A stretch of DNA of 15,519 bases from an uncultured archaeon (lineage in GTDB: Archaea > Iainarchaeota > Iainarchaeia > Iainarchaeales > CSSED10-239). A program made the translations under genes and the position numbers. Location of the stretch: positions 1 through 15,519 of the forward strand of contig CAZQEL010000020.1 in assembly GCA_964591795.1 (NCBI GenBank), written 5' to 3'. The notes below the pieces were generated by a model. That model did no database searches. It was given only the letters and a program-made list of their open reading frames with translations, and had not been told where the DNA came from. How positions within the stretch are numbered: the stretch's first letter is position 1; every line of letters starts with the position of its first letter. Below, one piece after another: positions 3,752 to 15,048 of the stretch.

Positions 3752-4021
3752 TTATCCGTGTATTTGTTGATCTTTAATTATTTTAACAGGAACTTTATTA
3801 GGATTCATTTTTTTAGCTAAAGCTTCTTTTTCTTTTATTTTAATTTTTAAAGTTCTAGTTATGTATCCTGCCATTAAATTAACTGTTAATTTAGATAATG
3901 GAAGTTTCATACTTTTTAAAAAAAGTTTGTTTTTTTCAAATTCAATTCCAAGTTTATCTTCAAATTCGTTAATTATTATTCTTGCTTTTGCTTTTATACT
4001 ATTTGATACAGCTTTTCCCAT
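3752..4021 (-). CDS. rps17e: 30S ribosomal protein S17e
   Basis: MGKAVSNSIKAKARIIINEFEDKLGIEFEKNKLFL...NLMAGYITR resembles archaeal S17e (MGxxRxxxIKRxxxxLxxxF...FExNK...RNRIAGYxTR). It lies 1 nt downstream of rpoK on the same strand. Confidence 0.8.
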   Translation of the reverse strand: MGKAVSNSIKAKARIIINEFEDKLGIEFEKNKLFLKSMKLPLSKLTVNLMAGYITRTLKIKIKEKEALAKKMNPNKVPVKIIKDQQIHG

Positions 4022-4022
4022 A

Positions 4023-4226
4023 TTAATTCACACTTATAATTTCTCTTTTGCCGTTAATTATTCTAATTACTGCTAAAGGTATAATTTTTTTAAAAAACTC
4101 TTTTTCTGCTAAAATACATGCTGTGTCATTTTTTAGTGCTCTTACAAGTGGAGGTGCTCCACATGCAATTTGTTCTGCACGAGCAGACAGTATCCTAGTT
4201 ACTTCATATTTTGTTAATTTTTTCAT
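4023..4226 (-). CDS. rpoK: DNA-directed RNA polymerase subunit K (Rpo6/RpoK)
   Basis: The ORF is 67 aa. LTKYEVTRILSARAEQIACGAPPLV matches the conserved RpoK/Rpb6 core ([22 protein letters not shown]). Confidence 0.85.
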   Translation of the reverse strand: MKKLTKYEVTRILSARAEQIACGAPPLVRALKNDTACILAEKEFFKKIIPLAVIRIINGKREIISVN

Positions 4227-4390: not shown

Positions 4391-4930
4391 ATGGCTGTAG
4401 TAAAAAAAATAAATGATTCAATAAGAGTAAAAATATTGTCTGCAATGATGAAAAAAGGATCAGTTACACCAAATGTTAGACAAATTAAAAAGATAACTGG
4501 TTTTCATAGAGCTACAATTAAATCATCCATTGATTTTTTAGAAAATAAAAAATTCATAAATGGTTATCGTCCATTATTAGATCCAGTTATTGCGGGTTAT
4601 AATTTAAAATCATTTTCTTATTTTCAAATAGATTTGTCTTTAAAAGAAAAACAAAAACAATTTTTTGAAAGTGTTTCGAAAGACAAAAATGTCTTTGCAG
4701 CATCACAAGTAATTTCTGAAGGAGATTTTAATATTGCCTTAAGTTTTTTATCTAAAAATATAGAGTCACAGCATAATAGTTTAAGAGAAAAGTATATTTA
4801 TAAAATTCCTAATTATTATGATTTTATAAAAAAATCATCTAGTTATTATTTATCAAATCCAATTTATAAAGCAAAAAATCAAATTGATACATTAATAGAG
4901 TTGTTACTTGAAGAACAAGGACTTGATTAA
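4391..4930 (+). CDS. Putative winged-helix DNA-binding protein, Lrp/AsnC-like architecture (N-terminal wHTH plus C-terminal alpha/beta domain)
   Basis: The ORF is 179 aa. The N-terminus (RVKILSAMMKKGSVTPNVRQIKKITGFHRATIKSSIDFLENKKFINGY) looks like a wHTH. The following LDPVIAGYNLKSFSYFQIDL resembles the start of an Lrp/AsnC RAM-type domain. The assignment rests on pattern only. The stop is 2 nt before the next ATG. Confidence 0.45.
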   Translation: MAVVKKINDSIRVKILSAMMKKGSVTPNVRQIKKITGFHRATIKSSIDFLENKKFINGYRPLLDPVIAGYNLKSFSYFQIDLSLKEKQKQFFESVSKDKNVFAASQVISEGDFNIALSFLSKNIESQHNSLREKYIYKIPNYYDFIKKSSSYYLSNPIYKAKNQIDTLIELLLEEQGLD

Positions 4931-11161: not shown

Positions 11162-12037
11162 ATGGCTCCAAAAAAGAAAGAAAAATTAAGTTTTGAAGAA
11201 GAACTTTATAGATTGTTTCTACCTTTAACTAGAAACATACGTTCTAATGAATTTGACGAAACTTTACAACAAGCAGATTTTACTGAAGATATAGATATTT
11301 ATCTTTCTAAAAATTTCTTTTTTGCTGGTTTTATACTAATAATGACTTTATTAGTTGGATTTATAATGTCTAATTTTGTACCTGATTTAGTTAGTTTACA
11401 ATTAGTAATTATTTTAGCATTATCAGTTTTTATTTGTTTTATTGGTTATACAATGGTAAATCCTTATTTAGTAATAGGTACTAAAAATTCAAGTATTAGA
11501 GATGCTCTTCCATTAGCAATTATTGGTATGTCTAGTGTTGCTGAATCTGGTGCACCACCAATTGCAATTTTTTCCACAAAAACAATAAAGGATAAAAGTC
11601 AATATCTTGATAAAGAATTATCAAAAATACTTTATTATGTAAATCATTTAGGTATTTCTCTTCTTGAAGCAATTGATATTACTGCAAGAAAAACACCTTC
11701 CTATGAATTAAAAAAATTTTTACTTGATTTGAAATCAAATATTGAAGCAGGTGGATCCTTACCTGAGTTTATGAAAAAGAAAGCTGAGCACGCTAGATTT
11801 CAATATAATTTAATTTTAAATAATCAAAATCAAAAGGCAGAAACTTTTGGTGATATTTATTCTGCAATTGTTGTTGCAGGTCCATTATTTTTATTTTCTG
11901 GTATCATGCTTTTAGGTATGGTTGGTGGTGGTATTGCTGGATTAAGTATAGCCACAGTACTTCAAATAGGTGTGTTTTTATTAGTGCCAATTATTAATAT
12001 TGCATTTATTGCAGTATTAAATTTAGTGAGTAGTTGA
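11162..12037 (+). CDS. Type IV pilus/archaellum-type platform membrane protein with a single T2SSF domain (TadB/TadC- or half-FlaJ-like), copy 1
   Basis: The ORF is 291 aa. Two N-terminal TM helices are followed by a cytoplasmic T2SSF-like helical domain (PLAIIGMSSVAESGAPPIAIF...GISLLEAIDITARKTPSYELKKFLLDLKSNIEAGGSLPEFM). C-terminal TM helices follow. Confidence 0.8.
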   Translation: MAPKKKEKLSFEEELYRLFLPLTRNIRSNEFDETLQQADFTEDIDIYLSKNFFFAGFILIMTLLVGFIMSNFVPDLVSLQLVIILALSVFICFIGYTMVNPYLVIGTKNSSIRDALPLAIIGMSSVAESGAPPIAIFSTKTIKDKSQYLDKELSKILYYVNHLGISLLEAIDITARKTPSYELKKFLLDLKSNIEAGGSLPEFMKKKAEHARFQYNLILNNQNQKAETFGDIYSAIVVAGPLFLFSGIMLLGMVGGGIAGLSIATVLQIGVFLLVPIINIAFIAVLNLVSS

Positions 12038-12043
12038 TGTTAA

Positions 12044-12898
12044 ATGAATTTTTTAAAAGAATTTGGAATTAATTTATCTGAAAAACAGAAATTTTTTGTT
12101 GATTATATTATTTATGGGTTAATTGGTTCAATTATTTTTGTAGTTCTTTTAATTAATACAAAATATTTAGTTTTTGCAATTTTTCCAATTTTAGTTGCTG
12201 TTGGTGTTGCTGCAAAAATCTATACTGCAAAAATTAAATCCTATGAAAGAAATTTATATGTGTTTTTAGATGATTTAAGAGATCTTTTACAAGGTGGTAT
12301 GAATATTGTTACTGCAGTAGAAGTAGCTTCAAGACACGATTATGGTCATTTAAATGTTCCAATAAAAAGGATAGCTGCACAAATTAAAATTGGAGTTTCT
12401 TTTGATGTTGCCTTAAATGATGTTTTTGGGCAAATTGATAGTTCGGTATTTAGACAAGTTACTCAAATTATTTCAGAAACTACAAAAGTAGGTGGTAATA
12501 TTATTAAAATATTTACCTCTATTTCAGATTATGTAAAAACAATTAATGATATGGTTGAAGAAAGAAAATCAAAAACATTTTCAACAGTTTTTTCAAGTTA
12601 TTTTATGTTCTTTGTTTTTATTGGAATTATTTTAATAATACAAATTGTTTTCTTACCAATGCTTAGTGCTAACTCTATGTCATTAAGTGGAGATACTGGT
12701 GGAGCTACATCTTCTTCTATGACAAATGTAGATTTTAATAAATATTTTTTATATTTAATTGTTATACAAGGTTTGTTTGCTGGTCCAACAATTGGTTTAA
12801 TTTCTGAAAATAATTTTATTGCAGGAATAAGGCATTCAATTATTCTTGTAGGTATTTCAGTACCTTTATATGTTGCAATATCTGCAATATTTTTGTAG
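12044..12898 (+). CDS. Type IV pilus/archaellum-type platform membrane protein with a single T2SSF domain, copy 2
   Basis: The ORF is 284 aa. Its T2SSF-like core reads FLDDLRDLLQGGMNIVTAVEVASRHDYGHLNVPIKRIAAQIKIGVSFDVALNDVFGQIDSSVFRQVTQIISETTKVGGNIIKIF and is flanked by TM helices. It starts 6 nt after copy 1. Confidence 0.8.
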   Translation: MNFLKEFGINLSEKQKFFVDYIIYGLIGSIIFVVLLINTKYLVFAIFPILVAVGVAAKIYTAKIKSYERNLYVFLDDLRDLLQGGMNIVTAVEVASRHDYGHLNVPIKRIAAQIKIGVSFDVALNDVFGQIDSSVFRQVTQIISETTKVGGNIIKIFTSISDYVKTINDMVEERKSKTFSTVFSSYFMFFVFIGIILIIQIVFLPMLSANSMSLSGDTGGATSSSMTNVDFNKYFLYLIVIQGLFAGPTIGLISENNFIAGIRHSIILVGISVPLYVAISAIFL

Positions 12899-13020: not shown

Positions 13021-13482
13021 ATGATTATTAAAAAAGCATTATCTCCATTAATTGCAACAATTCTTTTAGTTGCGGTTGCTTTGTCACTTGCTGGAATTTT
13101 ATATTCTTGGTCGTCACAAAATTTTAAAGATACAACCACAAGTGTTTCTGACACTTCAGCTGAATGGATTGATTGTAGTAATGTAAATATATATATAGAC
13201 TCAGGTTGTTCTTACAGTACAATTGACGGGTTTGATGGACTTATAATATTTGACAGATCAACAATTACGGTTGATCAAAACATTGTTTTAACTACTATTG
13301 CTAACGATAATACTATTGCAAGTACTGAATTAGAACCAAATTTTATTGGAAATGCAATGTCTTTAGATTCAATAGCAAATGCAGTTCCTACATTTATTGG
13401 TCTTGAAAAACCTTTAAAGAGAGTTCAAGTACATGTAGAAAATTGTCCTGACAGAGTATCTTACATTTCAAAATGTAATTAA
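13021..13482 (+). CDS. Archaeal type IV pilin-like protein (class III signal peptide, Pilin_N-type), paralogue 1
   Basis: The ORF is 153 aa. The N-terminus is MIIKKA|LSPLIATILLVAVALSLAGILYSW: a short basic leader, a small residue, then the SP[LI]IAT hydrophobic helix typical of archaeal pilins. There are four Cys (C52, C63, C142, C152). Confidence 0.8.
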   Translation: MIIKKALSPLIATILLVAVALSLAGILYSWSSQNFKDTTTSVSDTSAEWIDCSNVNIYIDSGCSYSTIDGFDGLIIFDRSTITVDQNIVLTTIANDNTIASTELEPNFIGNAMSLDSIANAVPTFIGLEKPLKRVQVHVENCPDRVSYISKCN

Positions 13483-13521
13483 ACTTAAAACAAAAATAAT
13501 AATAAAAAATATAAAAATATA

Positions 13522-13528
13522 AGGTGAT
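13522..13528 (+). promoter_or_regulatory. Shine-Dalgarno-like ribosome binding site for pilin paralogue 2
   Basis: AGGTGAT lies 5 nt upstream of the ATG at 13534 and is complementary to the conserved 16S 3' end (AUCACCU). It is the strongest SD-like match I see in front of any of the three pilin genes. Confidence 0.5.
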
Positions 13529-13533
13529 ATAAA

Positions 13534-14013
13534 ATGAATATGAAAAAAGCAATTTCTCCATTAATTGCGACAATTTTATTAATTGTTGTTGCGGTTGCAT
13601 TAATTGCAATTGTAATTGCATGGGGCAAATCTTTCACAACAGATAGTCTTTCAGATGCAACTGGTGTTGTAGACACAAGTTGTATGGGTGCAGCAATTCA
13701 AATTTCAGGTTGTACTATTAACGATTCAAATAAAATGATTTTCTACGTACAAAACACAGGTAATATTACTTTACCTACCGGAGATGATATTTTAATTAAT
13801 ATTACAAATGTTTCTGACGGAAATGCAACTTTAAATTTATCAACAGCAACAACTGAAACTACATGGACTGGAATTACAGCTGGACAAACTGCATTATTCA
13901 CACTTGATGATGCTAATTTACCAGGTGCAGTAACTGCTCAATATAACTTAAAATTAATATCAAGTTATTGTCCTTCAGATGCTATTGCAGAATTTAAAAA
14001 ATGTGGTCAATAA
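13534..14013 (+). CDS. Archaeal type IV pilin-like protein, paralogue 2 (candidate major, glycosylated subunit)
   Basis: The ORF is 159 aa. The N-terminus is MNMKKA|ISPLIATILLIVVAVALIAIVIAW. There are four Cys (C50, C60, C146, C157) and six N-x-S/T sequons (N63, N77, N89, N92, N97, N101). It has a strong SD upstream and a terminator hairpin downstream. Confidence 0.82.
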   Translation: MNMKKAISPLIATILLIVVAVALIAIVIAWGKSFTTDSLSDATGVVDTSCMGAAIQISGCTINDSNKMIFYVQNTGNITLPTGDDILINITNVSDGNATLNLSTATTETTWTGITAGQTALFTLDDANLPGAVTAQYNLKLISSYCPSDAIAEFKKCGQ

Positions 14014-14034
14014 ATACAACTTTAAAAATAATGT

Positions 14035-14075
14035 AGAAATCTTTTTTTAATAAAAAGATTTCTTATTTATTTTTT
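14035..14075 (+). terminator. Perfect 12-bp hairpin followed by a T-run, downstream of pilin paralogue 2
   Basis: agaaatcttttt (14035..14046), loop ttaat, then aaaaagatttct (14052..14063), followed by tatttatttttt with six consecutive T at 14070..14075. Confidence 0.55.
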
Positions 14076-14101
14076 AATTATAATTTTTATACTGAAATGA
14101 T

Positions 14102-14545
14102 ATGAGAAAAGCAATAAGCCCAATTATAGCAACTATTCTTTTAATTGTAGTTTCACTAGCACTTATTTCTATAATGTTGTCTTGGGGTTCTGAATTTGTT
14201 TCTAAAAACACAGCCGCAGCAGATAATACTGTTGATGCAGATTGTGTTGGCTCATATGTGAATTTTATTTCTTGTGTTTATGACATTAGTGAAGAAACAG
14301 TTACTGTTAATATTATTAATACAGGAAAAACTGATTTCAAGCAAGATCAAAATTTTAATGTGTCAATAATTGATAAAGATAAACAGGTTGATTTTTCACA
14401 TACTAATGTTTTAGATTCAAATGCTTTGGTAATAGGAGAATCAGATTACTTTGTAATAACAGATTATAATGGACCTAGTCCAATTACTGTGCAATTAAGA
14501 AATATGTATTGCCCATTAAACTACTGGCAAACTAAGTGTTCTTAA
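14102..14545 (+). CDS. Archaeal type IV pilin-like protein, paralogue 3
   Basis: The ORF is 147 aa. The N-terminus is MRKA|ISPIIATILLIVVSLALISIMLSW. There are four Cys (C48, C58, C137, C146) and one N-x-S/T sequon (N86). Confidence 0.8.
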   Translation: MRKAISPIIATILLIVVSLALISIMLSWGSEFVSKNTAAADNTVDADCVGSYVNFISCVYDISEETVTVNIINTGKTDFKQDQNFNVSIIDKDKQVDFSHTNVLDSNALVIGESDYFVITDYNGPSPITVQLRNMYCPLNYWQTKCS

Positions 14546-15048
14546 ATTCGTTCTAATTTTATTTTTGTAACTTTGTTTTCAAGATCTATAATTGCTATTA
14601 TATATTTTGTTTTTATACTACTTGCAAGTCTTTCTGACTTAATAACTTTTGTCATCTCATCTTTATGTGTTCTTTTTACATCTACAACATATTTTGTGTG
14701 TTCATGAACTTTAGAGTTACCTTCATATATTCTAAAATCAAAGCCAAATGTAGCTCCATCTTTTATAATATAGCCATTTTCTTTAAAGTCTTTATATACA
14801 ATATATTTGTCTTTAAAGTTTTTTATATATTTATTTATATAAGCTTCAATTTTATCTTTAGTTAATTGTTTTTTATTTAAAATAATGTTCATTTTATTTT
14901 TTTCAAAAAGATACATACTTTCAAATAAATTAAGTTCAAGATATTCGTCTTTTTTTATTCCGTACCCTTTACTTATTAATCTTGATTTTAAGTTATTTTC
15001 TATAACTTTGCAATTATTATTTTTTAAAATTCCATTCATATTTATCAT
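14542..15048 (-). CDS. endA: tRNA-splicing (intron) endonuclease, short homotetramer-type subunit
   Basis: The ORF is 168 aa. The catalytic-domain pattern is GFDFRIYEG...HEHTKYVVDV, followed by downstream conserved Lys residues, which fits the Tyr/His/Lys triad region of EndA. The N-terminal domain reads LISKGYGIK...LELNLFESMYL. Its 3' end overlaps the stop of pilin 3 by 4 nt. Confidence 0.82.
   Translation of the reverse strand: MINMNGILKNNNCKVIENNLKSRLISKGYGIKKDEYLELNLFESMYLFEKNKMNIILNKKQLTKDKIEAYINKYIKNFKDKYIVYKDFKENGYIIKDGATFGFDFRIYEGNSKVHEHTKYVVDVKRTHKDEMTKVIKSERLASSIKTKYIIAIIDLENKVTKIKLERI

Follow-up and report, generated by a model that had tools for sequence, protein, structure and literature searches.

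A 15,519-nt stretch of DNA from an uncultured Iainarchaeota archaeon (the window; GC content about 25%) carries three tandem genes, here called P1, P2 and P3 (Table 1), whose small products each contain exactly four cysteines in a common arrangement. We consider what these proteins are and how their cysteines, numbered C1 to C4 from the N-terminus, are paired, and we think it likely that they are type IV pilins in which two crossed intramolecular disulfides staple together the first and last strands of the head.

Three pilin genes and their four cysteines

The archaeal type IV pilin class was taken as the families TIGR02537, PF07790 and PF04021, its members having a short basic leader, a [KR]-[GA] cleavage site and a hydrophobic helix. 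P1, P2 and P3 all score above the 20-bit cutoff of TIGR02537, the NCBIfam model of the archaellin/type IV pilin N-terminal domain (Table 1), and their cleavage-site motifs (KKA/LSPLIATILL in P1, KKA/ISPLIATILL in P2 and RKA/ISPIIATILL in P3, the slash marking the cleavage) are those of class III signal peptides. The Pfam model Pilin_N matches P1 alone, below its threshold, and none of the three heads matched any Pfam family. Since TIGR02537 is above cutoff in all three, the neighbouring genes encode T2SSF proteins, the nearest solved sequences are archaeal type IV pilins and the model of the P2 protein (below) resembles FlaG/FlaF, we identify P1–P3 from their sequences as archaeal type IV pilins, paralogous to one another, from a DPANN (Iainarchaeota/Diapherotrites) archaeon. 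Two more specific assignments were rejected: the UpsA pilin model (NF046073) gives 37.1, 27.3 and 30.3 bits against an equivalog cutoff of 130, and the ArlG/FlaG stator model (NF052591) gives 15.7 bits for P3 and no match for P1 or P2 against a cutoff of 110, with no archaellum genes in the window or in the syntenic contig L001.

Table 1. Coordinates of the pilin genes, their cysteine codons and adjacent features in the window (a slash in a signal peptide marks the cleavage site).
Feature	Position	Strand	Details
TadC/FlaJ-type platform, first half (T2SSF)	11162..12037	+	PF00482 E 1.2e-9; ArlJ/FlaJ models align to N-terminal half
TadC/FlaJ-type platform, second half (T2SSF)	12044..12898	+	PF00482 E 3.4e-17; ArlJ/FlaJ models align to C-terminal half
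P1 pilin, 153 aa	13021..13482	+	Signal peptide MIIKKA/LSP; TIGR02537 35.9 bits
P1 Cys codons	13174-13176 (C52), 13207-13209 (C63), 13444-13446 (C142), 13474-13476 (C152)	+	ORF (open reading frame) translation
P2 pilin, 159 aa	13534..14013	+	Signal peptide MNMKKA/ISP; TIGR02537 27.1 bits
P2 Cys codons	13681-13683 (C50), 13711-13713 (C60), 13969-13971 (C146), 14002-14004 (C157)	+	ORF translation
Putative transcript end: AT-rich imperfect hairpin + T-runs, starting at P2 stop codon	14012..14086		Inverted repeat I2: 35-nt arms, 77% complementary, 5-nt loop
P3 pilin, 147 aa	14102..14545	+	Signal peptide MRKA/ISP; TIGR02537 21.7 bits
P3 Cys codons	14243-14245 (C48), 14273-14275 (C58), 14510-14512 (C137), 14537-14539 (C146)	+	ORF translation

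The cysteines lie at residues 52, 63, 142 and 152 of P1, 50, 60, 146 and 157 of P2, and 48, 58, 137 and 146 of P3; C3 is followed by proline in all three, and only one or two residues follow C4. Cysteine makes up 2.6% of the residues in the pilins vs 0.67% in the window's remaining 15 ORFs, so that about 1 cysteine would be expected per 150 aa and the Poisson probability of four or more is about 0.02 per protein, even before aligned positions are demanded; the framework is far beyond chance. The heads that carry it are highly diverged, as BLAST finds no significant similarity between P1 and either of the others, and 24% identity between P2 and P3. At the DNA level, by comparison, P1 and P2 match at 30 of 33 nt across KKA..IATI (P1/P3, 24/33; P2/P3, 23/33). 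We set aside gene conversion as the cause of the P1/P2 match, since this is the most conserved peptide of the family, few codon choices are available at 25% GC, and the other two pairs match at just 23–24 of the 33 positions. A first-pass annotation of the same DNA had listed these cysteine positions, the 30/33 identity and the divergence of the globular regions, and it was exact on the first and borne out on the other two.

The framework extends well beyond this locus. A profile search returned 287 close homologues, the top 120 of which divide cleanly into P1-type (46), P2-type (41) and P3-type (33) proteins at head identities down to about 30%, and 117 of these 120 have exactly four cysteines at the equivalent places. 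The statement that the C-terminal pair always begins with Cys-Pro is correct for the window and for P1-type orthologues (43 of 44) and does not extend to the P2-type (16 of 41) or the P3-type (14 of 32).

Pairing of the cysteines

Statistics on cysteine patterns, parity and coupling were computed for 247 full-length homologues, ignoring phylogeny. The number of cysteines is even in 243 of these and odd in 4, and in six-cysteine variants the additional cysteines come in pairs. Even parity and paired additions are the classical mark of exported proteins with structural disulfides, and together with the conservation of the cysteines over a divergent background they bear out the structural disulfides proposed in the first-pass annotation. 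But which cysteines are joined? That annotation had grouped C1 with C2 and C3 with C4, and the homologues that keep two cysteines of the framework are divided otherwise: all four are present in 205 of the 247, only C1 and C3 in 29, only C2 and C4 in 2, C1 and C3 plus a different extra pair in 9, and neither a C1+C2-only nor a C3+C4-only protein was found (0 each). The co-occurrence of C2 with C4 gives a Fisher test value of 9e-29, uncorrected for phylogeny. The two-cysteine proteins retain the context of C1 and the "h-x-h-x-x-x-C-P" (strand-Cys-Pro) context of C3, and in the converse cases, P0224 and P0253, C1 is absent, F/Y-Pro replaces C3, and C2 and C4 are retained.

Mean-field direct-coupling analysis (DCA) gives the same partners. 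Of the pairs separated by 5 or more residues, C2–C4 comes first and C1–C3 third when the analysis is run on gap-poor columns of the 247 sequences, and neither C1–C2 nor C3–C4 is among the top 45 pairs. This run superseded an initial one on P1-referenced columns that included gappy ones, which was dominated by gap artefacts and in which C63–C152 of P1 was still visible.

The AlphaFold2 models supply a third line of evidence. The P1 model (predicted local distance difference test score, pLDDT, 85) has a helix at residues 9–53 followed by a beta-sandwich, whose strand 142–149, continuous over 8 residues, forms a hairpin with 134–139; C152 lies beyond it, so that C142 and C152 are at opposite ends of one strand in the model. 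In the P2 model (pLDDT 81) the first strand, 55–62, holds C60 and the last, 151–158, holds C157, while C146 lies in the loop preceding the last strand. Both strands are 8 residues long and offset by 96, and the corresponding cysteine offsets are 96 (C50 to C146) and 97 (C60 to C157), a register that in this model fits the parallel first and last (A and G) strands of an immunoglobulin (Ig)-like sandwich. Foldseek searches of the PDB with the P1 model gave generic FN3 or antibody matches with E>0.03, which indicate the fold class only, and the best match of P2 was FlaG/FlaF, with E from 8e-5 to 1.5e-3 and target-normalised template modelling scores of 0.58–0.67. The beta-sandwich head characteristic of archaeal type IV pilins is thus present in the models of both P1 and P2, and the head is predicted to be the Ig/FN3/FlaG-like beta-sandwich of the archaeal type IV filament superfamily and not the alpha/beta roll of bacterial pilins.

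Because cysteine patterns, DCA and the strand layout of the models agree, we conclude that the bonds are probably C1–C3 and C2–C4, both intramolecular. The alternative of two local loops, one closed by C1–C2 after the helix and the other a C-terminal C3–C4 clasp analogous to the D-region of bacterial type IVa pilins, is what the spacings (9–10 and 8–10 residues) would suit, and in P2 the position of C146 before the last strand would, on secondary structure alone, sterically permit C3–C4. Some variants of the Aenigmatarchaeota type moreover add a local C-x8-C pair at the C-terminus beside C1 and C3. However, local loops leave unexplained the lack of C1+C2-only and C3+C4-only homologues against 29 with C1+C3 and 2 with C2+C4, the restriction of DCA coupling to C2–C4 and C1–C3, the 8-residue strand that separates C3 from C4 in the P1 model, and a head that is a beta-sandwich and not a bacterial-type roll; we consider them quite unlikely. 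The "C-P-x(7-9)-C clasp" is therefore probably half of a double staple and not a D-region-like loop.

The same data bear on disulfides between subunits, by which some or all of the cysteines would crosslink the filament. C4, at the extreme C-terminus, is likely to be exposed at the surface, and covalent links between subunits occur in other archaeal and bacterial filaments. That C1 and C3, and likewise C2 and C4, are gained and lost jointly within a chain is nonetheless the intramolecular expectation, the register of the first and last strands and the pairing of extra cysteines also favour bonds within the chain, and crosslinks would need compatible geometry in three divergent paralogues, which makes this explanation very unlikely.

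Several points weigh against the crossed pairing. The strand argument is read from DSSP strings of the models and not from Cys–Cys distances. C1 and C3 are near-invariant, so their coupling hinges on 2–3 co-losses; the co-occurrence statistics carry no correction for phylogeny, and the proteins with only C1 and C3 may represent few clades. The correlation between the C1–C2 and C3–C4 spacings is weak (Pearson 0.46 over sequences and 0.16 over distinct spacing combinations), with one clade behind it. The window contains neither an assembly ATPase nor a prepilin peptidase. Finally, no thiol oxidase of the DsbA/VKOR type was found among the ORFs of the window or the neighbours in L001, to which the search was limited, and many homologues come from groundwater (anoxic) or digester metagenomes.

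The last two observations, with the fact that four-cysteine motifs are typical metal ligands, would suit a zinc or iron site, or cysteines that stay reduced in an anoxic habitat and are conserved for some other chemistry. But the domain is extracellular, two-cysteine relatives occur both as C1+C3 and as C2+C4, the parity is 243:4 with extra cysteines in pairs, and a strand length separates the C1/C3 from the C2/C4 positions in the models, which makes a single tetrahedral site impossible; such roles are highly improbable.

The crossed disulfides can be placed in a sequence of events that draws in part on knowledge of the pilin family. A class III signal peptidase whose gene lies elsewhere would cut the precursors behind K-A, the hydrophobic N-terminal helix would pack into the filament core as the pilins assemble on a platform that appears to be split between two genes (below), and the small Ig/FlaG-like beta-sandwich is predicted to point outward. 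Once the cysteines are oxidised outside the cell, as we suppose they are, C1, where the helix passes into the first strand, would bond to C3, where the last-strand region begins, and C2, where the first strand or hairpin ends, to C4 at the extreme C-terminus, and the two bonds would covalently fasten the parallel first and last strands of the sandwich to each other. Such a staple may protect a minimal exposed head from unfolding, from proteolysis and from pulling force passed on via the helix. C1–C3, with C3 mostly in a Cys-Pro, would be the older, DPANN-wide staple, and C2–C4 a second one added later.

Gene neighbourhood and relatives of the pilins

Directly upstream of P1 lie two genes that each encode one T2SSF domain and together appear to constitute a TadC/FlaJ-type platform protein split in two (Table 1), and every syntenic locus examined keeps the split. 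Nor was a gene for an assembly ATPase or a prepilin peptidase found within ±10 kb in L001. The rest of the window holds archaeal housekeeping genes: primase PriL, iPGM, Pelota, S17e, an NFACT-R protein, CDC48, an M50 protease, TatD, a methyltransferase, a DRG-type GTPase, a tRNA-splicing endonuclease and DUF357. A 179-aa ORF at 4391-4930 has no Pfam match, and its position between S17e and the NFACT-R protein is conserved in L001.

Within the array, the 51-nt gap between P1 and P2 has nothing comparable to the hairpin that starts at the P2 stop codon, which may be a transcript end splitting P1–P2 from P3. A scan of the locus for bacterial promoters and terminators, not appropriate for archaea, made no call on it and found sites no more numerous than in shuffled sequence. 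P2 alone has a strong Shine-Dalgarno-like sequence, AAGGTGAT, upstream of its start codon (13520-13533), and it has six N-x-S/T sequons clustered at residues 63–103, compared with none in P1 and one in P3; the averages among the orthologue groups differ less (2.8, 2.1 and 1.7). These features hint that P2 may be the abundant, glycosylated subunit. Four nucleotides (14542-14545) are shared between the stop region of P3 and the 3' end of the tRNA-splicing endonuclease gene, which converges on P3 from the minus strand (14542-15048), and L001 and L004 have the same tight layout.

When the profile was searched exhaustively, 4041 representatives came up at E<=1e-3 and 507 at E<=1e-10. A 671-kb contig from Iainarchaeota and further contigs (L001–L004) share the gene order, in which the GTPase, two platform genes and the pilin array are followed by the tRNA endonuclease and DUF357 genes on the other strand, and one relative has five pilins in tandem. 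Among species-representative genomes the close relatives comprise the complete, 25% GC genome of Ca. Forterrea multitransposorum and metagenome-assembled genomes named Ca. Iainarchaeum, ainarchaeum or Diapherotrites. About 20 species-level genomes, that of Ca. Forterrea multitransposorum among them, have tandem arrays, of 3–5 pilins as counted among loci that extend beyond the array, with 4 or occasionally 6 cysteines per pilin. The same cysteine framework occurs in pilins of Woesearchaeota, Nanoarchaeia and Aenigmatarchaeota, while those of Nanopusillus and Nanobdella have a different, mid-domain pair; Aenigmatarchaeota is the sole taxon name taken from the cluster names of distant two-cysteine homologues, all other taxonomy being from the genome scan. 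Some homologues have been automatically named FlaG/FlaF by JGI (the Joint Genome Institute).

The relatives include several variations on the framework. Some Iainarchaeota arrays have 4–5 pilins, of which one paralogue has six cysteines (L004 7573-8046, with equivalents in L015, L018 and L019); its extra pair, at about residues 89 and 123, corresponds to two internal strands of the P2 model and looks like a third, cross-sheet disulfide. In the Aenigmatarchaeota-type variant (L032, L055 and L062; P0160, P0165 and P0173) C1 and C3 (in Cys-Pro) are kept and C2 is gone, and the C-terminus reads ...C-P-x6-C-x8-C, an extension with its own local cysteine pair. A genuine C-terminal mini-loop is accordingly to be expected in this sister lineage, judging from the primary structure of its pilins. 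Proteins of about 445 aa with a pilin-type N-terminus (KKAISPLIATILL) and six cysteines are encoded at a second locus of Ca. Forterrea (L034, match 4001-4165) and in L053; they may be large pilin-like adhesins encoded apart from the main array. In P0170, a protein of 2374 aa, 13 separate stretches align to the head part of the pilin profile (positions 50–127), which suggests that the head fold also serves as a tandem-repeat module in this giant, presumably surface, protein.

Comparison with known filaments and significance

The first-pass annotation had regarded disulfides as foreign to characterised archaeal pilins, which they are not. In the Pyrobaculum arsenaticum pilus a Cys80–Cys139 disulfide links the C-terminal extension to the head (PMC7347861), the flagellar-like type IV pilin of P. 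calidifontis (PDB 8FK7) has an intramolecular disulfide (PMC10334743), and conserved cysteines in type IV pilus components of Thermoproteales were noted in 2016 (PMC4858521). 8FK7 is also the best match among solved sequences (E 1.9e-7); Iho670, 8rey and H. volcanii 8fj5 are likewise among the nearest, with similarity that is N-terminal only. The Pyrobaculum pilins share with P1–P3 the class III signal peptide and the N-terminal helix and, with what is predicted for P1–P3, the beta-sandwich head and an intramolecular disulfide at the C-terminal segment; their disulfide has been interpreted as stabilising. They differ in that a single disulfide is described, at other positions in P. arsenaticum, whereas P1–P3 would have two forming a ladder from first to last strand; in 8FK7 the similarity lies within about the first 85 residues, and there is no cysteine at the C1 or C2 columns. 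Unlike Pyrobaculum, the hosts of P1–P3-type pilins are low-GC DPANN of groundwater and digesters and not hyperthermophiles, so a rationale of thermostability is not obviously applicable.

The gene order is similar to the one in archaeal type IV filament (TFF) "system 1" of methanogens and DPANN, of which a split platform is a hallmark (bioRxiv 10.64898/2026.04.22.720090). As in the Epd-type pilus of Methanococcus maripaludis, a two-gene platform is followed by several small pilin genes; the P1–P3 locus differs in having no ATPase, prepilin peptidase or accessory genes and in pilin heads that match no Pfam family. The FlaF/FlaG (ArlF/ArlG) archaellum stator of Sulfolobus acidocaldarius (PDB 5TUH, 5TUG and 6PBK) includes the best match of the P2 head and shares an N-terminal hydrophobic helix, but the ArlG model score (15.7 vs 110 bits), the lack of archaellum genes nearby and the clear K-A/I-S-P class III cleavage motif at the P1–P3 locus set the pilins apart from it.

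The D-region of bacterial type IVa pilins likewise has two near-C-terminal cysteines at a similar spacing and a likely role in stabilising the head, and the first-pass annotation had drawn the analogy. In P1–P3, however, the predicted head is a beta-sandwich, a strand stands between C3 and C4 in the P1 model, and the comparative evidence couples the C-terminal cysteines to N-proximal ones (C3 to C1 and C4 to C2); the resemblance is a sequence look-alike and not homology. A parallel in principle is found in the Ig-like domains of Gram-positive pilins, which are assembled by sortase and contain intramolecular Lys–Asn/Asp isopeptide bonds. There a covalent tie between first and last strands gives mechanical and protease resistance, although chemistry, assembly and ancestry all differ and the analogy is functional only.

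Disulfides that stabilise archaeal pilins were known before, so the general picture is unchanged. What is new is the probable first-to-last-strand placement and doubling of the bond, the strict conservation over three ancient paralogues and DPANN lineages, and the presence in low-GC, apparently non-thermophilic organisms. In the literature on DPANN, Iainarchaeota or Diapherotrites pilin cysteines we found no description of this framework, and no DPANN pilins were among the solved structures returned by the sequence search. The analysis defines a large pilin family not annotated in Pfam (the 507 representatives above), corrects a tempting bacterial analogy as probably wrong, and offers a structural rule, an ancestral C1–C3 staple with an optional C2–C4, that should aid annotation, the design of soluble constructs and the choice of cysteines to mutate.

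Pili are thought to be a main tool of DPANN archaea for attachment to hosts and surfaces. We think it unlikely, though worth stating, that the cysteines form a redox-sensitive ladder that switches pilus stability or attachment, or that they are oxidised by an unrecognised or a host- or environment-dependent folding route in cells without DsbA/DsbB/VKOR. If the present account is true, DPANN archaea with genomes of about 0.7–0.8 Mb, many of them living in the anoxic subsurface, would systematically build pili that need two, and sometimes three, extracytoplasmic disulfides, and if their genomes in addition have no DsbA/DsbB/VKOR-type system, this would imply an unrecognised route of oxidative folding, or bonds whose formation depends on the host or the environment.

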